Positions 7,432-63,982 of a DNA stretch of 64,000 bases are shown here, one piece after another. The notes below the pieces were generated by a model. It was not told where the DNA came from, made no database searches, and was given only the letters and a program-made list of their open reading frames with translations. Source of the DNA: Spirochaetia bacterium (lineage in GTDB: Bacteria > Spirochaetota > Spirochaetia > UBA9216); the NCBI GenBank assembly GCA_963677925.2, contig CAXXYH010000004.1, forward strand, positions 1,088,001-1,152,000, read 5' to 3'. Every line of letters begins with the position of its first letter. Position 1 is the stretch's first letter. Position numbers and translations under genes: made by a program.

Positions 7432-8904
7432 TTACTGTAAATTGTTATTTATAATCTTCTGAGTCTGTTCCAGGACAGCTTCAGGAGTCATTCTTCCGGA
7501 AAGCGCGAATCTAAGCATTTTCCACATTGTATTCTTATAAATTCCGAAGGCCTGATCCGGGGGAATGATTGTTCCGGTTTCCGATCCGACGGTCAGCTGC
7601 TTCATGTATCTGTTTGCCTCTGCGGCAAGTTCCAGTGCCGCTTCTGATGCGGGTAATTTGGAAACTGCTGCCGTAAATCTCTGCTGAACTCCTGTTCCGC
7701 AGAGATATTCGATAAGTCTGACGGCTGCGGCGGTATTGCGGCTTTTTTTAGGCACTGCAAAACCCTTGAAATCAAGAAGTCCCGAAAGCCGGATTCCGGT
7801 TTCAGAGTTGATCGGCAGAGGTACTGCCTCAAAGGGGATTCCGAGCTTTTCAAAATAGGGAATGCTGTATGAGGCGCTTATGATCATTCCGACATCGCCT
7901 GATACAAACATTGATGTCATTGCATCACGTTCCATCGGCTCCATCAGCCCCCTCTCCTGCAGACTTAGAATATACTTCAGTGATTTGATATTAGCCTCAT
8001 CATTAATAATTACCGATCCGTCGGGTTCAATCAGCGTCTTTTTGCCGAAGCTTATCTGAAAGGGGATAAGAAAAGATGATGAGTAGGCATTCCATGCCGA
8101 CGGAATTATTTCCCGGTTTTTTAACTGCAGGGCGTATGTTTCATAGTCCTTCGTTGTCCAGCTGTTTTTAGGAGTCTCCATCAGTCCGGTGTTGATGAAC
8201 ATCATCTGGGCATCATAGTAAAAGGGAACCGCCCAGGTTTTTCCGTTAAGACTGAAGGCCTCCCTGCCTTCTTTTATAAGTCCTTCAGGATACATGTAAT
8301 CAAGATTCTGTATGCTTTCCGATTTTGAAAGACTTTCCATATATGTCGACTGAACCATTATTAAATCAGGGACGCTTCCGCCTCCGCCTGAAACAGCAAT
8401 GAGTTTGGAGTCGGGCCGGGGCACCGAAACCGTGTTTATGCTTATGTTATGCAGCTCTGCATATCTGCTGATTTCTTCTTTTAGAAGGTCTTCCCCTTCC
8501 CAGTTTGTCCATATTTCAAGCTTTGAAGTAATCAGCTTTTCACCCCGCAAATCGATGCCCTGCACATCCTCTACAGTCCATCCGGGACCTTTAAGTGCCC
8601 ATTCTGAATCTGTCTTGATCAAATATATCCGGGGAAGCTGATCGGCAAGCCGGGTTTCTTTTTTTTCTATCAGGCCGTCTTCTATTGAAATATTCATTTT
8701 CCAGGCGTCATACATGGGAGGGAAGAGTTCATCAATAGATATTCCAACCGCGTTATTACCCTCTGCAGGTACCGGATAGCTTAATGTCTGAAGCTTTTCA
8801 GATGTAAAAGATTTCCATGGTTTTCCATTCAGGGTGAAATCAAGAGCGTTAAGGCTTACGGAGGCTGAGACTAATAAGAGAAAAAGAATCGATTTTTTGG
8901 GCAT
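7432..8904 (-). CDS. extracellular solute-binding protein (family 1) with an extra N-terminal domain
   Basis: signal peptide; GSVPDLIMV, NGKTWAVPFY, FVSGDVGMII and GFAVPKKSRN motifs of sugar-type SBPs. Confidence 0.85.
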   Translation of the reverse strand: MPKKSILFLLLVSASVSLNALDFTLNGKPWKSFTSEKLQTLSYPVPAEGNNAVGISIDELFPPMYDAWKMNISIEDGLIEKKETRLADQLPRIYLIKTDSEWALKGPGWTVEDVQGIDLRGEKLITSKLEIWTNWEGEDLLKEEISRYAELHNISINTVSVPRPDSKLIAVSGGGGSVPDLIMVQSTYMESLSKSESIQNLDYMYPEGLIKEGREAFSLNGKTWAVPFYYDAQMMFINTGLMETPKNSWTTKDYETYALQLKNREIIPSAWNAYSSSFLIPFQISFGKKTLIEPDGSVIINDEANIKSLKYILSLQERGLMEPMERDAMTSMFVSGDVGMIISASYSIPYFEKLGIPFEAVPLPINSETGIRLSGLLDFKGFAVPKKSRNTAAAVRLIEYLCGTGVQQRFTAAVSKLPASEAALELAAEANRYMKQLTVGSETGTIIPPDQAFGIYKNTMWKMLRFALSGRMTPEAVLEQTQKIINNNLQ

Positions 8905-8907
8905 CCC

Positions 8908-9007
8908 ACTTCCTTTCCAAATACGGGAGGCTGCTCTGTTTCCGGAACAGCCCTTCGACCCTCATTCCTTAAATATTGTGATTCTTAGGTATCAGGGTTC
9001 GGAAGAA
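8908..9007 (-). promoter_or_regulatory. Moco (molybdenum/tungsten cofactor) riboswitch motif
   Basis: minus strand reads TTCCGAACCCTGATACCTAAG...GAGGGTCGAAGGGCTGTTCCGGAAACAGAGCAGCCTCCCGTATTTGGAAAGGAAG then ATG; GCCTCCCGTATTTGGAAAGG and the GAAA-capped stem are Moco RNA hallmarks; the RBS lies in the closing stem. Confidence 0.85.
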
Positions 9008-9060
9008 TAACGGGATTATTTTATATTCAATTTATGAAGGGGTCAAGGATTATATAAAAC

Positions 9061-50042: not shown

Positions 50043-51116
50043 TTGGCAGTTGAAATCGTTTATGAAGAAAATAATAAAATTGGTATAATTTTCCCTTTTG
50101 ATGCCCAGATTCTGGATATTGTACGCACAATACCCGGAAGACAATGGCAGCCCGCAAATAAAAAATGGACATTTCCGGATACTGATGCAAATATGCAGCA
50201 TTTTCTCTTATCATTATATAAAACCGGCAGGTTTAATGTGGATGAGAAGGCTCTCGAAAATCAGGAACCGTCTCATAGCCGCTATTTGGAAAAAATGCTT
50301 CAGTATCTAAAGCTTAGAGACTATAGTCCTCATACTATTGAAACGTATAAGATGCAGCTCAAGTGGTTCTTTGATAGAACAGAACTTTCTCCTTCAGAAG
50401 TCACGACCGAGGATATCAAATTATATCTGGAGAAAATGCGGACACTGGCGGGGTGTTCAAGAACATACTTTGTACAATGTGTGAGCGCCCTGAAAAGCTT
50501 CTATAAGTATGGTTATCCCGGCGGTCTGTTTAATCCTGCAGCATCGATTCCCATGCCGAAAAAAGAAAAGAAGTATCCGGATATTCTATCCAGGGAAGAA
50601 GTGAAGAAGATAATAACATCTCCGTCGAATATTAAGCACCGATTGCTATTATCATTAATATACTCTGCAGGTCTCCGAGTAAGCGAAGCCGTTATAATAC
50701 AGTTGCAGGATATTGATACCGATAGGAAAGTAATTCATATCAGGCAGGCAAAAGGACGAAAAGATAGATATGTAATGCTTTCAACTGAGATTATTAATAT
50801 GATTAATCAATACAGATCCAAAGTGATGGTGCATACATGGCTTTTTCCTGGCAGTGCAGGTGCGGATACCCATCTTGCTACAAGATCTGCACAGAATGCC
50901 TTTTATAAAGCTATAGAAGCAACAGGTATCGAAAAAAATGTAAGTATACATTCTTTAAGACATGCCTTTGCCACTCATCTGTTGGAAAACGGTACAGACC
51001 TGAGATATATTCAGGAGCTCTTAGGTCACCGTGATCCAAAAACAACACAGATTTATACACATGTAAGTACTAAAGACCTAAAAAATATAAATAGTCCACT
51101 GGACGGGTTATTATGA
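50043..51116 (+). CDS. tyrosine recombinase associated with the cassette array (HARP-like + SAM-like + catalytic domains)
   Basis: GLRVSE, AKGRKDR, HSLRH, LGH, IYTH catalytic residues intact; LRDYSPHTIETY SAM-like domain; directly upstream of the first cassette. Confidence 0.93.
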   Translation: MAVEIVYEENNKIGIIFPFDAQILDIVRTIPGRQWQPANKKWTFPDTDANMQHFLLSLYKTGRFNVDEKALENQEPSHSRYLEKMLQYLKLRDYSPHTIETYKMQLKWFFDRTELSPSEVTTEDIKLYLEKMRTLAGCSRTYFVQCVSALKSFYKYGYPGGLFNPAASIPMPKKEKKYPDILSREEVKKIITSPSNIKHRLLLSLIYSAGLRVSEAVIIQLQDIDTDRKVIHIRQAKGRKDRYVMLSTEIINMINQYRSKVMVHTWLFPGSAGADTHLATRSAQNAFYKAIEATGIEKNVSIHSLRHAFATHLLENGTDLRYIQELLGHRDPKTTQIYTHVSTKDLKNINSPLDGLL

Positions 51117-51190
51117 ATAACAGGTTTATAAGGATTTAAGCTGGAGGGTTATATGAATGATATACCAGTTTATAATTCTGAGTTTATATG
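51117..51190 (+). other. candidate primary integration (attI-equivalent) site
   Basis: between the recombinase stop and the cassette 1 start (TTATATGC at 51184); TATAA-TTCTGAGT-TTATA core and a GGGTTATATGA box complementary to TCATATAACCC of the long attC-like sites. Confidence 0.45.
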
Positions 51191-51265
51191 CAATGGACCC
51201 GACAAGAGGAAGACGCCCGGACCTCCGGCCGACGGGCGAAGAGACATAAAGGTGGGGGATTTTTT

Positions 51266-52735
51266 ATGCAAGATTTATATATAAAATATAATAAGAAAGA
51301 TAATAAAATTGATTTTGGGCAAACAAAAGGCTCAATAATCGAGATTACTATAAAGCCACCTTCAATCGTTAAAGAAACAAAAGAAACAGGCATAACGAGA
51401 ATATCTGCTATTCAAGAAGATTTTGATAATCTAATTTCGGGAAAGAAGATGATTGACGTTAATAAAACGACTCTCGAACATTGTTATATCTTGGATAAAA
51501 AGGATCCTTACCGATTAGCGGCGACAAATTTTATTTTAAAAAATGAAAAGGATATTGAAGAATATAGTGAAATTCCAAAAGAAAATGATGCTGGTATATA
51601 TAAAAACTATGTAAAAGCATTTTTAGAAGAATTTACAAGATGTACGAAACACATTCCGTTTGCTGAAAAAATTAAAGTCTATCCTTTACCATTGTTGACT
51701 CCATGTAATGTGGAAGTATTAGTAGGTAAAGATGGTGTGTGCTTTATTTTCTCATCAGAAAGTAGACCTGAAAAAGTAAGTGTTTCCTTAGATATAAATA
51801 AAATAATAGAGGAACTTCTTCTGCCTCATCCTACTAATAGAAGATATTCATCATATGGACCTAATACTATTTTTAATTTTATCTGCTCAGATGAGAATTT
51901 TATACATGTGGTAGGGGATGGGAATGCGTTTTTAGATTCTATGCTAGGGAATCCAGTATTTTTGATTTTTGAAAAATCGTTTCATGGTTATTATTCCAAT
52001 ATGAATTTTATAAGAAATTATCCTGATACGGGACTTCAAGTTAAAAAGAAAGTTGAATATTGTGAAATATTTGGTAATAACCATATCTCTAACTTTTCAC
52101 TTGAAAACGCAAGGAGTAGAGCTAGGATAGTTGCGTATAAATCAATTTTGAGTAGTGTTACAGGAAATGTTAATAAAGTAGAAGAACTTAAAAATGTCTT
52201 GATAGAATTGAAAAACAAAATAAACAATGATGTCGGTGAAATAGAAATTGAGAAATTTATTGATTCAAATAAATGGATTTTAGAGAAAGGGATAGGGTGT
52301 CAAAAATATTTTTCACAAATTTCGATACCGAAAGATTTATTATATGATGCTGATGGTGGAATTAAACCTGATAAATATATGATGAATAATGACGGATATT
52401 GTGATATTTTAGATTTAAAAAAACCATCAGCCAAACTAATTGTAATAAAGAATAACCGCAGTCATCAATCTAGTTCTTTAACCGAAGCGGAGGCACAAAT
52501 TGATAAATATATTGATTTCTCTCGTGAACCAAAGGTTAGAGATTATTTATTAACGCTTAATATAAAAATTACGAAACCTGATGGAATTGTATTGATTGGG
52601 AGAACCCCGAAGGAATATTTAAAAGAATGGATTGATATAAAAAAGAGATTACAAATAAAAGTATATACTTATGATGATTTAGTTAATAATTTGGATAATT
52701 TAATTGATTGGATAGATAAGATTCTTACAATTTGA
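51266..52735 (+). CDS. cassette 1: Shedu-like (DUF4263) anti-phage nuclease with long N-terminal region
   Basis: C-terminal E.EIEKFI..N.WIL, KPD, ILDLKKP, LTEAEAQIDKY, P.GIVLIGR, VYTYDDL; start moved to 51266. Confidence 0.75.
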   Translation: MQDLYIKYNKKDNKIDFGQTKGSIIEITIKPPSIVKETKETGITRISAIQEDFDNLISGKKMIDVNKTTLEHCYILDKKDPYRLAATNFILKNEKDIEEYSEIPKENDAGIYKNYVKAFLEEFTRCTKHIPFAEKIKVYPLPLLTPCNVEVLVGKDGVCFIFSSESRPEKVSVSLDINKIIEELLLPHPTNRRYSSYGPNTIFNFICSDENFIHVVGDGNAFLDSMLGNPVFLIFEKSFHGYYSNMNFIRNYPDTGLQVKKKVEYCEIFGNNHISNFSLENARSRARIVAYKSILSSVTGNVNKVEELKNVLIELKNKINNDVGEIEIEKFIDSNKWILEKGIGCQKYFSQISIPKDLLYDADGGIKPDKYMMNNDGYCDILDLKKPSAKLIVIKNNRSHQSSSLTEAEAQIDKYIDFSREPKVRDYLLTLNIKITKPDGIVLIGRTPKEYLKEWIDIKKRLQIKVYTYDDLVNNLDNLIDWIDKILTI

Positions 52736-52788
52736 ATTAAGAATCCAGACCTAACTCCGTTGAACGGTCTGGATGTCGGGTCCAAAGC

Positions 52789-52882
52789 ATAAAACAGGGG
52801 CTATGTGTATCGTCGCTATGCGCTCCTCGGGCTGCGCCACATACGGCTACGCCGTACGTCACATAACACCGGGACGTTATGA
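52789..52882 (+). repeat. attC-like site 1 (short, 94 bp)
   Basis: ATAAAAC-AGGGGCTATGTG...CACATAAC-ACCGGGAC-GTTATGA. Confidence 0.85.
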
Positions 52883-52993
52883 GCAATAAGCCCGACAAGT
52901 AAAAGACGCCCGGACCTCCGGCCGACGGGCAAAGAGAGACAGTGTGATAAAATATTATACTAAAAAAGTAAATATAGAATTAAGGGTTTTCAT

Positions 52994-53587: not shown

Positions 53588-53660
53588 ATTATTCATAACA
53601 ATGAAGGATAAAGAATCCAGCCCTAACTCCGTTGGACGGTCTGGATGTCGGGCTTAAAGC

Positions 53661-53755
53661 TCATAACAGGGGCTATGTGCTTCGTCGCTATACGCTCCTC
53701 GGGCTGCGCCACATACGGCATTCGCCGTACGTCACATAACCCCGGGACGTTATAG
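53661..53755 (+). repeat. attC-like site 2 (short, 95 bp)
   Basis: TCATAAC-AGGGGCTATGTG...CACATAAC-CCCGGGAC-GTTATAG. Confidence 0.9.
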
Positions 53756-54385: not shown

Positions 54386-54520
54386 ATATGCATGCAAAAT
54401 TTCTATTCATATAGTTACTATTAAAGAGTAATTACTAAGAAATTTGAGTATTATTTTAGCATATAAGAGTGGGAATCCAGACCTAACTCCGTTGAACGGT
54501 CTGGATGTCAGGCTCAAAGC

Positions 54521-54843
54521 GCATAACAGGGGCTATATGCTCGTCGCTAAACGCTCCTTGGGCTTCGCCACATTTTTATTTTCTGAATTGGGTAATTGGG
54601 TACAGCATTTAACAAGAGATTTGGAGTAGTCAAAACCTTTGTCACAGTTCTGGCTAAAGACACTCCGCGCTGATCGCGCTACGTTCCAGAACTGCGCCAA
54701 GCCTCGGAGACTCGGCCGGTTTCGCTACTCAAATCGTCGTTAAATGCACAGAAATGTGCCAATAGTTTATGATTGAGAAATACGGGTAAGTGGTGGTAAA
54801 ATTAAGAAAAATAAAAACGTCATATAACCCCGGGGCGTTATGA
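54521..54843 (+). repeat. attC-like site 3 (long, 323 bp)
   Basis: same ends as the short sites, with an approximately 240-bp structured arm replacing the ACGGC..GCCGT hairpin. Confidence 0.85.
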
Positions 54844-54960
54844 GCAATGAGCCCAACAAGAGGAAGACGCCCGGACCTCCGGCCGACGGGCGAAGAATCG
54901 ATTGGTTTGATTTTTATAACTGATAAGTGATGTCAAAAGTAATATAAAGAATAGGTTGGT

Positions 54961-55680
54961 ATGGATATACAAGAGGATAAAGTAAATAATAATTTGATTG
55001 CGCAAGATTTAGAATTAGGAGTAATAACTATGGGGGCAGCAACGATTGATCAAAGACATAATTTTGCATACCAACATATGCACTCAGCTATTGAATTTAG
55101 GAATCAAACTTATAAAATTGAAGAAGATAATAAAAACGAAAAATTTGGATATTTTTTTGAGTTGATTAGAACATATGTAAGTGGTTGTATATTCTTTTCA
55201 GTGGCTTCAGTAGAGGCAAATATAAATGAAATTATATGTGATATTATTGAAAATAAAATAAAATTAGGTGAGTTTGAAAAAAAGAAAATTATTGAAATAA
55301 ATGATAGAGAGTCTACTCTTAAAAAATACGAAATCATATTAAACGAGGTAATGAAGTTTGAATTATCAAAAGATAAAGAAATTTATCAAAATATGAAAAT
55401 TTTAATAGATGTAAGAAATGCTTTTACTCATTTCAAACCAGAATGGGAATCAAATCAGAAATGGCATGATAAAATTGGAAGAAAATTATCTGGGAAAATC
55501 AAGATGACTCCATACATAGAAGATAGCAGTCCGATTTTTCCGATGCGTTGCATGACTTATGATTTTTGTTGTTGGTCCACAATATCAAGTTATAATTTTA
55601 TGAAAGAAATTTTTAGTTTACTATCAATAAGAAATAAATTTGAGAAATTTGAAGAAACAATTTATAAGGGTAGTAATTAA
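54961..55680 (+). CDS. cassette 4: HEPN-like protein
   Basis: ASVEANINE helix and RNAFTH (R-X4-H) motif. Confidence 0.6.
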   Translation: MDIQEDKVNNNLIAQDLELGVITMGAATIDQRHNFAYQHMHSAIEFRNQTYKIEEDNKNEKFGYFFELIRTYVSGCIFFSVASVEANINEIICDIIENKIKLGEFEKKKIIEINDRESTLKKYEIILNEVMKFELSKDKEIYQNMKILIDVRNAFTHFKPEWESNQKWHDKIGRKLSGKIKMTPYIEDSSPIFPMRCMTYDFCCWSTISSYNFMKEIFSLLSIRNKFEKFEETIYKGSN

Positions 55681-55761
55681 TATAATTATATAGCTTATTT
55701 TTATAGTGTAAGGGAATCCAGACCTATCTCCGTCGAACGGTCTGGATGTTGGGCTCAAAGC

Positions 55762-56085
55762 GCATAACAGGGGCTATATGCATCGTCGCTAAATGCTCCT
55801 CGGGCTGCGCCACATTTTTATTTTGTAATTGGGTTAATAGGGTATAGCATTTAACAAAAGATTTGGAGTAGTCACAACCTTTGTCACAGTTCTGGCTAAA
55901 GACACTCCGCGCTGATCGCGCTGCGTTCCAGAACTGCGCCAAGCCTCGGTGACTCGGCCGGTTTCGCTACTCAAATCGTCGTTAAATGCACAGACATGTG
56001 CCAATAGTTTATGATTGTGAAATACGGGTAAGTGGTGGTAAAATTAAGAAAAATAAAAACGTCATATAACCCCGGGACGTTAGCT
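55762..56085 (+). repeat. attC-like site 4 (long, 324 bp)
   Basis: near-identical to site 3. Confidence 0.85.
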
Positions 56086-56213
56086 GCAATTTCGGTCATG
56101 GTAATTATCTAATTAGTAGGAGCCCGCCTTCCATGGCGGTCAGGATAGAAGAAGTAAATATCTACATTTTGATACATTTTTTAAATAAACAATCTAAATA
56201 ATAAGGAATTTTA

Positions 56214-56933
56214 ATGAAAAAAAAGAGAATTATATCAATACTTCTATGTCTTTTTTCAACATCGGTCTATGCAGAAACAAATGATGTTCCAAATGGAATG
56301 ATCATAGAATCATCTTCTAATAATGGACAATCAATTCTTGTAAGAAAACATGACCAAGTTTTGACGATTGATTACTCTGCGCACGATTTTCAAATGGTTA
56401 TTTATGATTCTCCAATAAATAAAGAAAAAATTGGGGAATTGAAAAAGAAGGATGTAATACGAATAAAAGAAATACATATTATTGATGATAACGAAATGTG
56501 GTTTAAAATTTCTGCTTCTGAGAAAAATGGTTATATCTTATTTAAAATTGGTGAAAATATTTATGATTTCTACGCTGATAATTTATGGCAACCAGTAGAA
56601 ACTATTCAGAGTGGGGAGCAAACTTGGCATACATTAAAATGTAATCAGAGTTTTATTGTTTATACTAATTTGTTTATTCGTGATAAACCTGGATTTGGTG
56701 GGGAAAAAATAGGAATGATAACTGCAAATAATAGCAATTCCGAAATAGTAAGCACTTCAGAAGTTACTGTTGAAAAAGAGAAGATTGATGGAAAAACTGA
56801 ACGCTGGGCTAAAATTGAATATTAAGGACTAATTGGTTGGGTATTTGCAGGTTATTTGAGTTATGAAAGAGGTGGGCCTAGGTTTAATACTCCCGAATCA
56901 ATGATAGCAATGAGTCTTGGCGCAGGTATTTAA
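56214..56933 (+). pseudogene. cassette 5: secreted SH3-domain protein with an in-frame stop at 56823-56825
   Basis: signal peptide; NLFIRDKPG...WAKIEY*GLIGWVFAGYL is an SH3b-like motif split by TAA; the frame continues to 56933. Confidence 0.7.
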
Positions 56934-57040
56934 ATTTTTAGATATTATTATAATTCGTGGAAATTTAAATTGTTTTACAGAGTCAAATACATCCTTGTAT
57001 TTGACAGAATTAATCACTTGACAACCATGACGGAAACAGC

Positions 57041-57367
57041 AGCTAACAGGGGTTATTTGCTTCGTCGCTATGTGCTCCTCGGGCTTCGCAACATTTTTAT
57101 TTTTGTAAATGGACGATATGACAAAAGGCATTTAACAATGATTTGCAGCAGTCCTGGCTATTTTCACGGTTTTAGCTAAAGACGTTCCGCGCTGATCGCG
57201 CTGCACTCTAAAACCGAGCCAATGCCGTAGGAGACTACGGCCGCCAGGCAGCTGAAATCGGCGTTAAATGCACAGACATGTGCCAATAGTTTATGATTGA
57301 GAAATACGGGTAAGTGGTGGTAAAATTAAGAAAAATAAAAACGTCATATAACCCCGGGACGTTATAC
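57041..57367 (+). repeat. attC-like site 5 (long, 327 bp, divergent arm)
   Basis: AGCTAAC-AGGGGTTAT...CATATAAC-CCCGGGAC-GTTATAC. Confidence 0.85.
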
Positions 57368-57399
57368 GACATATCACATATCTAAAATGGAGTAAAAAA

Positions 57400-57807
57400 G
57401 TGAGTGAAAGACCGTTTAAAGAAAAATCGAATGAACCTACAAACGAAAAAATAAATGAAGCACTCGGTGCTGTTTCCGAATATTATCATGATTTAAATAA
57501 ATTGACAAAAGATTTTCAACACACCTGGAATCATTCAAAATCCAGTGGCTGGATGGAAAAAGTAGAAGATAATAAAAAAGCTCTTTACTATTTTATTCCG
57601 TTGAATGATTCCTTTATTCTGAGTATGGCTATTAGAGAAAATGAAAAAGAATATTTTGAGTCTAAAGAGGGTATGGTAAAATATAAAGATATAGTATCAA
57701 CCGCCAGAAAATATTCGGAAGGATATAATATAAAATTTGAGGTAGAAAACTCTGAGCAATACGATTTTTCAAAAGAGTTTGTAAAAGAAATAATTGCTCA
57801 AAGGTAG
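57400..57807 (+). CDS. cassette 6: DUF3788-like hypothetical protein
   Basis: P..E.I.EALG...W...K.SGW..K....KK.L.Y..P....F, ARKYSEG pattern; GGAG RBS with GTG start. Confidence 0.6.
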   Translation: MSERPFKEKSNEPTNEKINEALGAVSEYYHDLNKLTKDFQHTWNHSKSSGWMEKVEDNKKALYYFIPLNDSFILSMAIRENEKEYFESKEGMVKYKDIVSTARKYSEGYNIKFEVENSEQYDFSKEFVKEIIAQR

Positions 57808-57821
57808 ATATGTGAAACGTC

Positions 57822-57915
57822 GTATAACAGGGGCTATGTGCTTCGTCGCTATACGCTCCTCGGGCTGCGCCACATACGGCTTCGCCGTACGTCACATAAC
57901 CCCGGAACGTTATCT
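57822..57915 (+). repeat. attC-like site 6 (short, 94 bp)
   Basis: GTATAAC...GTTATCT; body nearly identical to site 2. Confidence 0.9.
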
Positions 57916-57977
57916 GACATACCCAGAAAAGTTCCGACCCTCACCATCCGTGGTTCGGGTTTTAAGAAGAAGAGAAA

Positions 57978-58724
57978 ATGAATATTGAATGTATTATTAA
58001 AGAAGCTGGAAGAAAGTTAAAGAACGAATATTTGGAAACGCCTCTTGTCTCAGTTAAAGAAAGATATGATTTAGTAAGTCAAAGTGATAAGAGGATTGAA
58101 GAGGAATTAATAAAAGAGATTATAAAGTTGTTTCCAAATGATGATATTTATTCAGAAGAAATTGGAGAAATTAAGAATGAAGGAAGATCAAGATGGATTA
58201 TAGATCCAATTGATGGAACCGCTGATTTTATTTTTGGAGTCCCGTACTTTGCAATATCAATCGCAAAAGAAGTAGATGGGATAATTGAAGAAGGTTATGT
58301 ATATAATCCAATATCGGAAGAGTTTTATAAATCAATTAAAAATGAAAGAAAATCCTACCTCAATGATGTAGAAATAAAAGTTTCAGAAAAAAATGTAATT
58401 GAAGAATCTTTAATTGCTTTCGGATTTAGTGCCAATGAAGAGAATATGAATTTATATCTTTCTGAATGGTCTAATCTCATGAATGATTGTAGAAAGGCAA
58501 TGCCATTAATCACTCCTGCATTAACAATTTGTAATGTCGCAAGAGGAAGGATCGACGCTTACATAGATTTTGGTTCAAGTATGGAAGGAAAAGCTGCTGC
58601 CAGTATGATATTGCTGAATGCAGGAGGAAGTATTCGGAATTATTATAGAGAGGGTTTTGATCATAGAGAAAAAGGACATATATGTAGCAATGGAAGATTG
58701 GATCTTGAAGAAGGAAGAGGTTAG
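57978..58724 (+). CDS. cassette 7: inositol monophosphatase family protein
   Basis: DLVSQSD, SEE, WIIDPIDGT, VARGRIDAY. Confidence 0.88.
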   Translation: MNIECIIKEAGRKLKNEYLETPLVSVKERYDLVSQSDKRIEEELIKEIIKLFPNDDIYSEEIGEIKNEGRSRWIIDPIDGTADFIFGVPYFAISIAKEVDGIIEEGYVYNPISEEFYKSIKNERKSYLNDVEIKVSEKNVIEESLIAFGFSANEENMNLYLSEWSNLMNDCRKAMPLITPALTICNVARGRIDAYIDFGSSMEGKAAASMILLNAGGSIRNYYREGFDHREKGHICSNGRLDLEEGRG

Positions 58725-58783
58725 GAAGAAAAATAAGTACATCCCTGTACTTATTTTAGAGGTATAATAAAAATGGGTACGTC

Positions 58784-58875
58784 AGATAACAAGGGTTACA
58801 CGCTCCGGCCATACGGCCTGCGGGCTGAGCCACATTCGGCTACACCGAACGTCGTGTAACCCTGGAACGTTATCT
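58784..58875 (+). repeat. attC-like site 7 (short, 92 bp, divergent)
   Basis: AGATAAC-AAGGGTTACACG...CGTGTAAC-CCTGGAAC-GTTATCT; compensatory stem changes relative to the other sites. Confidence 0.85.
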
Positions 58876-58990
58876 GCAATGTTTCCGCCAAGAGGAAGAT
58901 GCCCGGACCTCCGGCCGACGGGCGAAGAAGAATGAGGTTTGAATATACTAATTAGTGAGATAAGATAAAATAAAAAAATGAGGTAGCATT

Positions 58991-59560
58991 ATGAAAGTGT
59001 TTATTTTAACTGTTTTAGGAGTAGTCTCAACAAGAATTTTGGATTTATTCACTACATATAAAATTACTCCGGATTTAGAGAAAGAAAGTAATTTATTTGT
59101 AAAGTTGCTTGGGGAAACTGGAGGTTGGGCAGCGATTTGGATATTTCAAGCAATTGTAGTAATTTTACTTCTCTATTTAGAATATTTAAGAATAAAAAGT
59201 CCAACCGTCGAATATGTAGAAGATGAGGGTTTGAAATTTAAAGAATATTTTTCATTAAATTATTCGAGTAAGAAAGATGATTTAATAAAATCAGTAATGA
59301 ATTTACCATTAAAGAAGAGGTTGATGATCGATCTATTAGGATATATTGGTACAAGAACTTTACTATTTGGAACAATTCCTGTCTGTTTATCAAGTCTGTT
59401 TGCGATTTTAAACTCTTCTTATCGAAGTTTCTATGTAGATAATAGTTTATGGAGAATACTGTATTTAATAATGGCAGTAGTATTAGTGAGTTTTTATATA
59501 AGATTTTTTTGGATAAGATTTAAGGATTATGAGAAGAAAGATATTTTAAAGAAAATGTAA
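58991..59560 (+). CDS. cassette 8: hypothetical membrane protein
   Basis: four TM segments; DLFTT....PDL.KESN motif. Confidence 0.75.
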   Translation: MKVFILTVLGVVSTRILDLFTTYKITPDLEKESNLFVKLLGETGGWAAIWIFQAIVVILLLYLEYLRIKSPTVEYVEDEGLKFKEYFSLNYSSKKDDLIKSVMNLPLKKRLMIDLLGYIGTRTLLFGTIPVCLSSLFAILNSSYRSFYVDNSLWRILYLIMAVVLVSFYIRFFWIRFKDYEKKDILKKM

Positions 59561-59637
59561 GAAAGAGAGAAAGAGAGAAAGAGAGAAACCAGCCCTGGCT
59601 CCGCCGTACGGTCTGGCTGAAGAGGCGGAAACACAGC

Positions 59638-59816
59638 AGATAACAGCGGCTATGTGCGGCGTCGCTAAACGCTCCTTGGCCTACGGCATATTTTGTTTTG
59701 GCATCGCTTTTGCGAAGAGGTAGAAAAATATAGGGTAAAGGCGTCGAATGCAAAAGTGCTGCCAATCGGCCTGTAGGGCCGACCACAAAACATCACATAA
59801 CCGCGGGACGTTATAG
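59638..59816 (+). repeat. attC-like site 8 (intermediate, 179 bp)
   Basis: AGATAAC-AGCGGCTATGTG...CACATAAC-CGCGGGAC-GTTATAG with a different inserted arm. Confidence 0.85.
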
Positions 59817-59930
59817 GAAATATTTTGGCTAAGAGAAAGACGCCCGGACCTCCGGCCGACGGGCAATAAGGAAAAAAAGAATAAATTTTAAAATTGATAT
59901 ATTATGTCAATATATAAGAAATGAAACGTA

Positions 59931-61057
59931 TTGAAAAGGATTCTATTATTTTTATTATTATTAGGAATAACCTCATGTAAAAACTTTTTTCCATATTATC
60001 AAAATGGATACCATTTCAATCAAATATTTTCTAAAGATACAAAACTTATTTTAGATGAAAAAGCAGATTCATTCTCTGCGTTTATATCTGAGACTTCTAA
60101 AGTTTTAGTATATTATAGTACTGATGGGATGGTGCACTTGATAGATTTGGAAGGATTGATTGAAGTTTCCACCATCCCTTGGGTTGATAATTCAAATTAT
60201 TATAATGATATTGTTCCTGATTTTAAACAATTGTATATTTATGAAAATTATTTGTATCTTCTAGGGTCAACAGATTGTCTGGTATATTTGATTGAGGATA
60301 TATCAAATCCATCTTTTAAATATTCTATTAGTGAAAATAATACCTATAATTTAAACACTACCTATTATTTAAGTTTAAGATGTATGGATAATAAAATATA
60401 TATTTTAGATTCTAATTCATTTTCATACTATAAACTATTATTAATTTTGGATGCAGATAATATGCTAGAAATTGAAAGACATTATTTAGATTCTTTTGAA
60501 GGAGTAATTGATAAAGAAATTTACTTAAATTCAAATTATTTATACACTTTTTCAAGTGAGCTTAAAATTGATAAAGATGGTAATCCTTTTACAATAACAA
60601 ATCAAATGATTGTTTATGATATTACTGATATTTCTAATAATTATGAATTGGTCGATATAAATTCTATCAGTTTAGAGGACAATGGATTTAATATATATAA
60701 TGATATTATAGTAAGTGATGGAGCAATAGGTTTAAATTCAGAAGAGTATTTTTGGAGCATAATAAAATTAGATAGTGAAAAAAATATGAATTTCTACAAA
60801 AATGTAATTCAACAGATGAAATAAACTTGTTTAGTTATTTTGATTTAGATTTTGATTTTAATAATATTTTAATCGGGAATTATTTTGTTTATGATATAAG
60901 AGAGTTAAATAGTCCAAGATGGATTGGGACTATTGATGAGGATTTGAAAGACATCGAAGTTGTAAGAAAACTTCAAACTGGAGATAACTTATTTTTATTT
61001 GAAAAAGGTAGTGATAGTGAGAATGAAATAGCTTTAGTGAAGTATGCTTTTAATTGA
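59931..61057 (+). pseudogene. cassette 9: LVIVD-like beta-propeller lipoprotein, frameshifted near 60800
   Basis: lipobox ITSC; IEDISNP, VYDITDISN, VYDIRELNSP repeats; the two ORFs join if one A is added to the A5 run at 60798-60802. Confidence 0.65.
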
Positions 61058-61156
61058 TAAAGTTTGTTTTGGGATACTGTTAAAGTTGAAAGTTGTATGT
61101 TTAAGAGTCCAGCCCTATCTCCGATGTACGGTCTGGCTCAAGAGCCAAAATACTTC

Positions 61157-61479
61157 CTATAACAGGGGCTATATGCTCAGCCCATTCGGGCTTCGGGCTG
61201 CGCCACATTTTTATTTTATGGATTGGGCTATTTGGGTATAGCATTTAACAAAAGTTTTGGAGCAGTCCTGGCTATTGTCATGATTCTGGCAGAGACGTTC
61301 CGCGCTGATCGCGCTGCACTCCAGAATCACGCCAATGCGCGCGAAGACACGCGCCGCCATGCAGCTCAAAACGTCGTTAAATGCACAGACATGCGCCAAT
61401 AGTTTGTGATTGGTAAATACGGGTAAGTGGTGGTAAAATTAAAAAAATAAAAACGTCATATAACCCCGGGACGTTATGC
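61157..61479 (+). repeat. attC-like site 9 (long, 323 bp)
   Basis: CTATAAC-AGGGGCTATATG...CATATAAC-CCCGGGAC-GTTATGC. Confidence 0.85.
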
Positions 61480-61950
61480 GGACATCGCCGGAGCATGGTT
61501 ATGGGGTGGAGAAAGTTCCGAACAAGAAGTGATTACCAAATAGTTTGCAATATTCAATTCGCCCTAGATTGAGGAAGATTTTTGATTTTGATTTGGATGT
61601 TGTTGGAAGAAGGTCGTTAAAATTGACGAAGCTTGTTCTGGCGTGAAAGAAAAAGTATTGTCTTAAAATTATCAAAATCTTTTTTGAAGATGGAGCAGGT
61701 TTTACCATTTTGCAAGTCTGATTCACTCGCATAGCTCGTTGACTTGCGACTTAATAAAAATGATTGTTTTACTTGCAAAGGGCGAATAGAATATTGAGAA
61801 GAAATAGAAAGAGAAGATTGTATAGATTATTTGATTGATCGGAATCTTTCTCTAATAAAGGCGACGTCGCATAACAGGGCACATGCGGCTACGGGGTCAA
61901 GCCCCTTCGCCCAAATTGGCCTGCGGCCAACTTCGCATATGCCCGGGACG
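61474..61950 (+). other. cassette 10: ORF-less structured cassette (includes attC-like site 10, 61869-61956)
   Basis: no credible ORF; nested long-range complementary segments; paralog of cassette 11. Confidence 0.75.
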
Positions 61951-62426
61951 TTATGCGGACATCGCCGTAGCATGATCTTGGGGTGGAGAAAGTTCCGAAC
62001 CAGAAGTGATTACCAAATAGTTTGCAATATTCAATTCGCCCTGGATTGAGGGAGATTTTGGATTTTGATTTTGTGGTTGTCAGAAGAAAGCCGTTGCATC
62101 TGACGAAGTTTATTCTGACGTGGAAAAAAGTATTGTTTTATAATTATCAAAATCTGCTTCGTGGACTTGGCAGGGTTTTCCGTTTGGCAAGTCTGCCTCA
62201 CTCGCTTTGCTCGTTGACTTGCAGGTGAAATAAAAATGATTGTGAAAGTCGCAAAGGGCGAATAGAATATTGGGTAGAAATGGTAAGAGGAGATTTGTTA
62301 GGTCATTTGATTGATCGGAATCTTTCTCTAATAAAGGCGACGTCGCATAACAGGGCACATGCGGCTACGGGGGCAAGCCCCTTCGCCCAAATTGGCCTGC
62401 GGCCAACTTCGCATATGCCCGGGACG
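61951..62426 (+). other. cassette 11: ORF-less structured cassette (includes attC-like site 11, 62345-62432)
   Basis: diverged tandem copy of cassette 10 that keeps the paired segments. Confidence 0.75.
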
Positions 62427-62535
62427 TTATAGGAAATGCCCATCAAAATCTTTGAAAGATCCTCGCCATCCATGGCTCGGTTTAGAAGAATAGAAAGAAG
62501 TTGACAATCCACTACAATGTAATTACAGTATAAAT

Positions 62536-62820
62536 ATGGAACATATCCAGTTTGAATGGGATAATAAGAAAGATGAGCTAAATCAGAAGAAGCATAAGAT
62601 AGGTTTTGACGAGGCAAAAACTGTATTTTATGATCCATCTGCATTGTTGATTCATGATCCAGATCATTCTGAAGATGAAGAAAGATTCATAATTATGGGG
62701 ATGAGTCAAAGCTTGAAGATCTTAGTTGTTTGTCATTGTTATAGATCTAATGATGAAGTTATACGAATAATATCTGCTAGAAAAGCAGAGAAAGAAGAGA
62801 TTAGGCAATATGGAGGATGA
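62536..62820 (+). CDS. brnT: cassette 12: BrnT-family toxin
   Basis: FEWDNKK...N..KH.I.F..A..VF.D...EERF...G...IRIISARKA; candidate own promoter TTGACA at 62501. Confidence 0.9.
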   Translation: MEHIQFEWDNKKDELNQKKHKIGFDEAKTVFYDPSALLIHDPDHSEDEERFIIMGMSQSLKILVVCHCYRSNDEVIRIISARKAEKEEIRQYGG

Positions 62821-63093: not shown

Positions 63094-63188
63094 CTATAAC
63101 AGGGGCTATGTGCTTCGTCGCTATGCGCTCCTCGGGCTGCGCCACATACGGCTTACGCCGTACGTCACATAACCCCTGGACGTTAGCT
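63094..63188 (+). repeat. attC-like site 12 (short, 95 bp)
   Basis: CTATAAC...CACATAAC-CCCTGGAC-GTTAGCT. Confidence 0.9.
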
Positions 63189-63313
63189 GAAATGCCCCCG
63201 CGAAGAGAAAGACGCCCGGACCTCCGGCCGGCGGGCGATAAGGAAATTATAATATGCATAATTGATTTACAAGTCTAAATATAGTACTATATAAGCACTA
63301 ATAGGAGTTTATT

Positions 63314-63598
63314 ATGAATTTAAGAGAAGATATTAAGCCGATTTCATATATTAAAACAAACGCAGCAGACATGTTAAAACGTGTTAATGATACTCACAAC
63401 CCGATTGTAATAACCCAGAATGGTGAAGCAAAAGCAGTTTTGATGGATACTGAATCATATCAAGAAATGAGGAATAGTCTTGGAATTTTAAAATTGCTTG
63501 CAGAAGGTGAACGTGATATCGAAAAGGGAGATATCTATACACAAGATGAAGTTTTTGAAGAAATTGAAGCAAAACTGTTAAATATGAAGAAGAAATAA
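63314..63598 (+). CDS. cassette 13: Phd/YefM-family antitoxin
   Basis: IKPISYIK...PIVITQNGEAKAVLMD. Confidence 0.9.
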   Translation: MNLREDIKPISYIKTNAADMLKRVNDTHNPIVITQNGEAKAVLMDTESYQEMRNSLGILKLLAEGERDIEKGDIYTQDEVFEEIEAKLLNMKKK

Positions 63599-63602
63599 TG
63601 AT

Positions 63603-63917
63603 ATGGAAGTTATTTGGACTAAAACAGCAAAAAATGATTTAAATGAGATAGTTGAATATATAGCAAATGACTCTGTAGAAATAGCATTAAATAAATTTTA
63701 TGAAATTAGAGAAAGTACTAAACCCTTAGAGAAATTTCCTGAACAAGGAAGACTGATTCCAGAATTAAGAAATGAAAACATCTTGCGATATAGGGAAATT
63801 ATAATAAACCCATGGCGGATAATGTATAAAATAGAAGATAAGAAAGTTTATATTATAGCAGTCATAGATGGAAGAAGAAATGTTGAAGATGTTTTAATGA
63901 AAAGGCAACTTCGTTAA
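63603..63917 (+). CDS. cassette 13: RelE/ParE-family toxin
   Basis: WTKTAKNDL.EI.EYIA...FPEQGR..PEL...YRE....WRIMY...IAVIDGRR. Confidence 0.9.
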   Translation: MEVIWTKTAKNDLNEIVEYIANDSVEIALNKFYEIRESTKPLEKFPEQGRLIPELRNENILRYREIIINPWRIMYKIEDKKVYIIAVIDGRRNVEDVLMKRQLR

Positions 63918-63982
63918 AGAAACATTAAAAGAATCCAGACCTAACTCCGTCGAACGGTCTGGATGAAGAGCGGGGGCACTAC

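Follow-up and report, generated by a model that had tools for sequence, protein, structure and literature searches.

So far, an integron attC site has been regarded as one hairpin of no more than ~140 nt, a view on which detection tools also rest. The relevant sections of two published accounts give sizes of 57-141 bp, extrahelical bases 6 bp apart and, in chromosomal integrons, branched tips (PMC5027507), and sizes of 63-132 bp for Treponema (PMC3607928). In the present work, we analysed a stretch of 64,000 nucleotides from a Spirochaetia bacterium (lineage UBA9216; GenBank assembly GCA_963677925.2, contig CAXXYH010000004.1, forward-strand positions 1,088,001 to 1,152,000), referred to below as the window, with positions counted from its first letter. 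The window lies on contig C4 (C4:1088001-1152000) of a 5.04-Mb genome (G000 below) assembled in four contigs, and its last part carries a gene-cassette array with four giant sites. On comparative grounds it appears probable (we would put it at about 0.8) that each giant is a compound attC, i.e., an 88-nt attC-like site (type A) in which the second hairpin tip has been replaced by a segment x, a complete attC of another family (type B) and a segment y, and which serves as an adapter between two cassette arrays of the same genome.

Several described systems resemble these sites in part. Like the VCR-type attC sites of sedentary chromosomal integrons in Vibrio, they are imperfect palindromes with RYYYAAC/GTTRRRY boxes, and their inner type B part shares with VCR-type sites the unpaired spacer, the bulged bases 6 bp apart, a bottom strand that folds better and a branched tip. 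They differ from published attC sites in their length of 323-328 nt and in that a complete attC of another family, apparently used as a crossover point, makes up the 'terminal structure'. Hybrid attC sites (attC x attC) arise when a crossover at G|TT fuses one site's body with the portion of a second site that lies downstream. Two partial forms described below, AL-x-B and B-y-AR (AL and AR being the left and right parts of the type A site), obey this rule, whereas the giants would hold two crossover points nested in one fold, from two families and with ~100 nt (y + AR) between them. The IS1111-attC family and group IIC-attC introns insert into attC sites and likewise place a foreign element within an attC; unlike them, the giants contain no transposase, intron RNA or target duplication, and what they carry inside is a cassette recombination site in its own right. 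The closest published idea, as far as the sections devoted to it go, is the DUF1874 motif, a multistem element repeated in consecutive intergenic regions, which its authors suggested might be an attC of unusual complexity with no integrase close by (Weinberg et al. 2017, PMC5737381). However, this motif gave no match in the Rfam scan of the window, and those sections describe no nesting. A full-text literature search, with most subscription journals outside its reach, returned no description of a nested or compound attC, nor of an attC near 320 nt.

From ~51.1 kb to the end of the window, and on to ~C4:1160260, the DNA is a gene-cassette array. It consists of co-oriented open reading frames (ORFs) with G+C-rich repeats between them, which start ...ATAAC and end GTTA..., and its G+C content is 32-37%, compared with 40-52% upstream. 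Most of the repeats are type A sites of ~88 nt (52792-52879, 53663-53752, 58786-58872, 63096-63185, and site 6 at 57822-57915 on the plus strand, which we used as the outer-site reference). At sites 3, 4, 5 and 9, which measure 323-328 nt from the R'' box to the R' box, an arm of ~240 nt occupies the place of the 13-nt hairpin tip (ACGGC-loop-GCCGT) of the short sites, between ...CACAT and ACGTCA..., a replacement that the initial annotation of this DNA had described. All the arm stems listed there were also recovered at the four sites, namely TTTTTATTTT/AAAAATAAAA and GCATTTAAC/GTTAAATGC and, with variants, GATTTGGAGTAG/CTACTCAAATC and CAGTTCTGG/CCAGAACTG. The tip CGCGCTGATCGCG, which had been called invariant, is identical in the four giants but varies in the wider family. 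A repeat finder returned the arm in four copies (family D1), and two 300-nt copies that are 94% identical (family D6).

The layout of a giant is AL - x - B - y - AR: the loop of a type A site holds an entire type B site. The segments of site 4 measure 52, 35, 138, 71 and 26 nt, respectively. The type B core is about 143 nt long and has its own GCATTTAAC/GTTAAATGC boxes. All four giants lie on the plus strand. Site 3 (54521-54843) comprises AL at 54523-54572, x, the inner type B attC at 54605-54747, y at 54748-54816 and AR at 54817-54840; site 4 (55761-56085) has its inner attC at 55847-55989 and y at 55990-56058; site 5 (57040-57367) holds an inner attC of a different B subfamily at 57128-57271, followed by y at 57272-57340; and site 9 (61155-61479), owned by the cassette at 59814-61476, has its inner attC at 61241-61385 and y at 61386-61452. 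Site 8 (59640-59813, plus strand), for which a third, shorter arm had been noted, is indeed intermediate: it is a 174-nt type A site with an arm of ~100 nt that is partly x/y-like and lacks the B core, yet it is not a clean empty site.

The initial annotation had taken the arm for a selected structured RNA or single-stranded DNA (ssDNA) module and had not recognised its identity; its core is a complete attC type that also exists free-standing on contig C3. A blastn search of the genome with one arm found the four window copies and 32 partial copies, all of the latter on the minus strand of C3 between 51 and 127 kb and mostly ~0.7-1.9 kb apart. Iterated nhmmer, which replaced a loose motif-pair scan of the genome that was too unspecific and was more sensitive than blastn-short on the components, located the arm core four times in the window array and 39 times on C3 (51-127 kb), the y segment four and three times, respectively, and neither of them elsewhere in the genome; the left half of the A site was found in 15 + 5 copies. 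On C3 the core stands alone behind each ORF (ATAAC-AAGA-GATTTGGAGTAG ... CTACTCAAATC-GTC-GTTAT), and this free-standing type B is the cassette site of ~39 cassettes, placed 3' of co-oriented ORFs at a spacing of 0.4-2.5 kb, bar one stretch of 23 kb. That stretch (C3 ~60.5-83.4 kb, L003/L004) contains no detected B sites and shows a weak tyrosine-recombinase match at C3:62191-62811. The C3 array adjoins, and runs divergently from, the gene of a 419-aa integron integrase (L006 200-1459). The protein scores 382 bits against TIGR02249 (cut-off 265) and aligns with the solved Vibrio integrase VchIntIA (2a3v) in a single alignment of 305 residues (222 bits) that runs through the integrase-specific insertion. 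Judged by these matches, it is a true integron integrase, with the additional domain predicted to be present.

Structural analysis of type B was based on 62 sites with pairwise identities below 90%, drawn from 120 full-length sites of G000, G001 and G007. AAC and GTT are invariant in all 62; a bulged G23 and a bulged T30 are conserved in at least 90% and enclose a 6-bp stem (columns 24-29); and the central spacer is unpaired, with 4 nt against 3 nt. The compensatory covariation that had been claimed for the arm holds in this wider set of arm-core homologues from three genomes. Under a structure of 42 pairs, 92.7% of cells are paired, compared with 30-41% when the partners are slid by 1-3 columns; double-sided changes occur in 27 of the 42 pairs (7-12 after sliding); and the covariation score of 0.441 (at most 0.124 after sliding) was reached by none of 500 shuffles. 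RNAalifold found compensatory changes in 21 of 33 pairs. Counts of G.U and A.C in the B alignment were about equal and gave no strand call, and the strand was therefore decided by folding energies. The bottom strand, opposite to the cassette genes, is the more stable in 120/120 B sites, 22/23 A sites and 4/4 giants, the mean energies of the 120 B sites being -33.6 kcal/mol (bottom) and -27.9 kcal/mol (top). When folded as ssDNA, the bottom strand of site 4 reaches -47.3 kcal/mol (z -3.5; 1 of 100 shuffles equal), as against -37.7 kcal/mol for the top strand (z -0.4; 32 of 100 shuffles equal), and the inner B site folded alone reaches -32.5 kcal/mol (z -5.0). By its defining features, i.e., boxes, bulges, spacer, strand bias and array context, the type B core is an attC. 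The folded bottom strand of a giant would form one long nested structure, in which the outer A stems are closed by the TTTTTATTTT/AAAAATAAAA extension and the three-way-junction B fold lies inside, and the inner site would thereby bring the outer arms together.

In integrons, whatever follows G|TT is part of the next cassette, and these bases match that cassette's own R'' box. We therefore compared, in both arrays, the 8 nt that follow GTT with the reverse-complemented 8 nt ahead of the next AAC. Complementarity averaged 6.04/8 over 46 junctions, compared with 3.58 +/- 0.16 for shuffled pairs, and none of 5000 permutations reached the observed value; the mean at the nine junctions of hybrid sites was 6.0/8, and the outer boundaries of the giants gave 6-7/8 matches. 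The outer G|TT delimits the type A cassettes of the window array, and the inner one (in GTCG|TTAAATGC) is the point at which giant-type sites are split in the C3 array. There, a 'closer' (B-y-AR) is followed by one or two type A cassettes and then by an 'opener' (AL-x-B), and five such brackets are found. Two of the five have decayed: in one the decay affects the outer halves, and in the other, whose y segment is of the G007 type, the B core of the opener carries an internal deletion.

The paralogues carry this further. Window positions 59787-61386 correspond to C3:120890-119291 with 98.4% identity, the match ends at the inner GTTAAATGCAC, and beyond it the C3 copy of the giant-9 cassette runs into a B-type cassette; with such an identity, the split at the inner site would be recent. 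A second A cassette is 99.8% identical in the two arrays and is preceded by a short A site on C4 and by B-y-AR on C3. The giants themselves are mosaics, with identities of 90-99% for y, 63-97% for B, 50-84% for x and 65-93% for AL, a pattern that exchange at the inner crossover would predict. For example, sites 3 and 4 have B cores that share 93-94% identity with free B sites of another genus, as against 71-75% with the B cores of sites 5 and 9. Taken together, these comparisons indicate that both levels have served as crossover points, and the split sites and paralogues may be traces of type B recombination by the integron integrase.

Giants are also found in other genomes. A 322-nt giant query matched 11 of the 41 genomes searched, G000 included. 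An intact giant in G001, a sister genome of the same genus, is 91% identical over positions 2-320 of 322. In G007, which belongs to another genus, the AL, x and y segments of an intact giant have diverged, and the T-run stem and the GCATTTAAC/GTTAAATGC boxes have been kept; a second copy in this genome lacks AR.

These observations could be accounted for as follows. A cassette excised through the outer A site would form a circle, ORF-AL-x-B-y-AR, with a complete A and a complete B site; because the giant carries both, one excised circle would have two usable sites. The integron integrase encoded on C3 could capture this circle through the inner B site, either at attI or at a B site, which would yield ...y-AR | ORF | AL-x-B, and the next B cassette to be inserted upstream would donate its B body and create the observed B-y-AR closer. 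The scheme follows the standard integron model and would account for all A-type pieces found on C3. Thus, the same cassette is apparently open to capture by either of the two arrays in the genome.

Several points weigh against this explanation. We infer recombination at either level from comparative arrangements only, and none of the four inner B sites of the window array holds an inserted B cassette. The contigs of two sequencing runs are short unitigs that break at repeats and lend no independent support. This includes two contigs, from the probable source sample, that bridge cassette-AL-x-B; the many joints in the sequencing-run contigs can be put down to the other array. An origin of x and y as an ORF-less cassette inserted at a GTT of the loop was considered and dropped, a suitable GTT being present only in site 4. 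On the bottom strand, the bulged bases of type B would be C and A; those of VCR sites are G and T. Finally, a long terminal structure is reported, in the section of PMC5027507 on this point, to lower recombination when the site extrudes from double-stranded DNA, a length penalty that a structured inner site may offset.

Some of these points would suit a fossil insertion, in which a type B element landed in a type A loop, e.g., by secondary-site insertion at GTT, and is now an inert passenger. The hybrid sites on C3 would then be old events, with no working adapter, and the outer site would be weakened or unaffected. The four inner sites without a cassette, the two decayed brackets (outer halves in one, the opener deletion in the other) and the reported penalty for long tips are in line with such a history. 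Nonetheless, it is unlikely: the outer boundaries of the giants carry the cassette signature at 6-7/8, the paralogue split at the inner site is recent at 98.4% identity, different B subfamilies are joined to near-identical y segments, the architecture has been kept in another genus despite diverged x and y, and the stems of the inner site are all intact and covary.

The strong covariation of a multibranch fold could also point to a structured RNA (small RNA, riboswitch or ribozyme) transcribed from within the site, all the more so as y contains, in 4/4 giants, a promoter-like sequence (TTGAGA-18-TAAAAT with a TG extension). This is very improbable, since the stabler fold is on the strand opposite to the cassette genes in 120/120 B sites, the AAC/GTT boxes are invariant, the cassette boundaries are complementary and the array stands beside an integrase. 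The Rfam search that had been proposed earlier likewise returned nothing on the arm: at the gathering score, the sole match in the window is a molybdenum-cofactor riboswitch elsewhere, and at E values up to 5 there are four chance-level matches, none of them on an arm. Thus, of the selected module originally suggested, the single-strand structure stands, with covariation and a bottom-strand advantage in 4/4 giants, whereas the RNA role does not. A miniature inverted-repeat element (MITE), an insertion-sequence relic or an ORF-less group II intron targeting attC sites would fit the 10-bp terminal inverted repeats (TTTTTATTTT/AAAAATAAAA) and the constant position in the host site, but it is barely conceivable given that a 13-nt tip is replaced with no target duplication, no intron or other Rfam model matches, the core alone serves ~39 cassettes as their site, and, contrary to the genome-wide dispersal that had been named as the test of such an origin, 0 of 43 core copies and 0 of 7 y copies lie outside the two cassette arrays.

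The promoter-like sites, with the variants TTGAGA, TTGTGA and TTGGTA at the upstream hexamer, point into the next cassette (54773-54802, 56015-56044, 57297-57326 and 61410-61439), and they might be a reason for the 90-99% conservation of y. In G007, whose y has diverged, TGATAGAAT stands at a comparable position. No RNA data set was listed among the sequencing runs that contain this DNA.

The compound-attC reading concerns the giants; the type A sites that frame them raise a question of their own. The AAC/GTT pair is present in 26/26 type A sites. On the bottom strand, the consensus runs from an R stem of 5 bp through a 4-nt bulge, confined to the R'-L' arm, to an L stem of 11 bp with no single-base bulges and then a three-way junction. 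Three G.T pairs are conserved where the top strand would have C.A mismatches, and compensatory changes affect 14 of the 28 pairs. Type A thus behaves as attC in its boxes, bottom-strand bias and cassette-boundary signature. However, its consensus shows no single extrahelical bases on the R''-L'' arm and no two-sided unpaired spacer, and we therefore term it attC-like rather than canonical.

Directly upstream of the window array, and on the same strand, lies the gene of a XerA-like tyrosine recombinase (50043-51116, plus strand). The protein has tyrosine-recombinase domains and passes the XerA model NF040815 (232 bits, cut-off 220), whereas it fails TIGR02249 (194 bits, cut-off 265), which it matches in two stretches that skip model positions ~180-234. 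Likewise, it aligns with 2a3v in two stretches, and its best solved relative, the XerA-like 4a8e, aligns in one. The integrase-specific domain between the catalytic K and HxxR is absent from this protein. Between the stop codon and the first cassette there is a junction at 51117-51184 (plus strand), with the presumed crossover between 51182 and 51183: G000 and G001 share their sequence from the stop codon as far as ...TTCTGAG|TT, beyond which their first cassettes differ, and comparable junctions are visible in G007, G004, G234, G010 and G177. In this respect, the junction downstream of the XerA-like gene appears to behave in an attI-like manner.

Xer enzymes are familiar from Xer-dependent dif modules. 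By analogy with XerC/D, folded single strands could be substrates of a Xer-type recombinase that lacks the integrase insertion; unlike XerC/D, the XerA-like gene heads up to tens of AAC/GTT hairpin sites and is followed by an attI-like junction, as in an integron. According to the section of PMC5027507 on the subject, besides integron integrases XerCD alone among tyrosine recombinases are known to use such substrates. The literature search described above found no integron-type array headed by an insertion-less recombinase, including in the relevant sections of PMC4889954, PMC8352920, PMC5027507, PMC5737381 and PMC3607928.

Of 251 genomes of the class, 26 have a homologue of the XerA-like protein at E <= 1e-60. 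Co-oriented type A sites lie downstream of the homologue in 13 of the 26, which come from at least seven family-level groups of Spirochaetia (G000, G001, G004, G006, G007, G012, G039, G056, G062, G168, G177, G234 and G237; the matches in G039, G062 and G168 are partial). Twelve of the remaining 13 have less than 0.9 kb of downstream sequence, mostly because of contig ends, and G005 has no A site in the 1.5 kb downstream of its homologue. In G000, G001 and G007, an A array follows the XerA-like gene and a B array stands beside IntI. G237 likewise has an A array behind the XerA-like gene, with IntI ~0.4 Mb off, and in G018, A sites lie divergently beside a weaker homologue, with IntI on another contig. 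A type A covariance model matched in 16 of 26 genomes with the recombinase and in 8 of 54 without it, which is weak evidence, given the kinship among the genomes, an arbitrary threshold of 1e-60 and a model specific to one family. The protein family itself is large: 7221 of 8000 scored proteins fall within E <= 1e-30, their labels being XerD, tyrosine recombinase or "integron integrase", and many of them stand on contigs of 1-4 kb. Proteins from Firmicutes with an identity of ~41% are among the homologues.

Whether the XerA-like protein cuts type A sites and the canonical integrase type B sites is, in our estimate, close to a coin toss. One pure B site in the XerA-like-linked array of G006 argues against such a division of labour, as does the presence of IntI over the cut-off in 10 of 16 XerA-like-bearing genomes, with two adjacent pieces of it in two more; since most genomes with the XerA-like gene thus have IntI as well, one integrase could serve both site types. 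A broader proposal, which we hold somewhat less likely than not, is that there are two single-strand cassette platforms, canonical IntI with type B and the XerA-like protein with bulge-less type A and its own attI, and that the compound sites evolved as adapters between them. At the least, the XerA-like gene, the attI-like junction and the co-oriented bulge-less array may represent an integron-like platform that has gone unrecognised.

If a site of 320 nt that contains a second working site does function, recombination sites on folded single strands can be modular and nested, cassettes can bear two 'addresses', and arrays of different site families in one genome can trade genes via adapters. 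If the XerA-like reading is true, a cassette array would be served by a recombinase that lacks the very insertion regarded as essential to the activity of integron integrases. Confirmation that it heads its own array would bear on the origin of integron integrases from Xer-type enzymes, and arrays now scored as integrase-less may then have an unrecognised recombinase.

Further features of the window lie outside these questions. A molybdenum-cofactor riboswitch at 8894-9016 (minus strand; 74.5 bits, gathering score 36) is unrelated to the giant sites. The cargo of the array (51188-52735, 62536-62820 and 63314-63917) includes a Shedu-type defence protein (SduA_C) and toxin-antitoxin genes (BrnT; Phd with ParE), and other cassettes encode an inositol monophosphatase and a DUF3788 protein. 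Cassette starts share a 5' motif, ...GCAATGAGCCCGACAAGAGGAAGACGCCCGGACCTCCGGCCGACGGGCGAAG with a G+C-rich hairpin (families D5 and D8), found at 51190-51240 and at seven other starts, for example 52885-52935, 54846-54896, 58878-58928, 59819-59869 and 63191-63241; it gave no Rfam match at E values up to 5 and could be an element of the 5' untranslated region. A hairpin, (G)AATCCAGACC-TAACTCCGTTGAAC-GGTCTGGATG, stands ~20 nt 5' of seven type A sites (family D7; approximately 52742-52776, 53614-53648, 54474-54508, 55715-55749, 59586-59620, 61106-61140 and 63932-63966) and is present on C3 too. Finally, the region at 61477-62430 consists of an ORF-less cassette of ~476 nt in two tandem copies (86-92% identical) with a third kind of site (families D10-D12), and the first cassette in the array of the sister genome begins like this ORF-less cassette.

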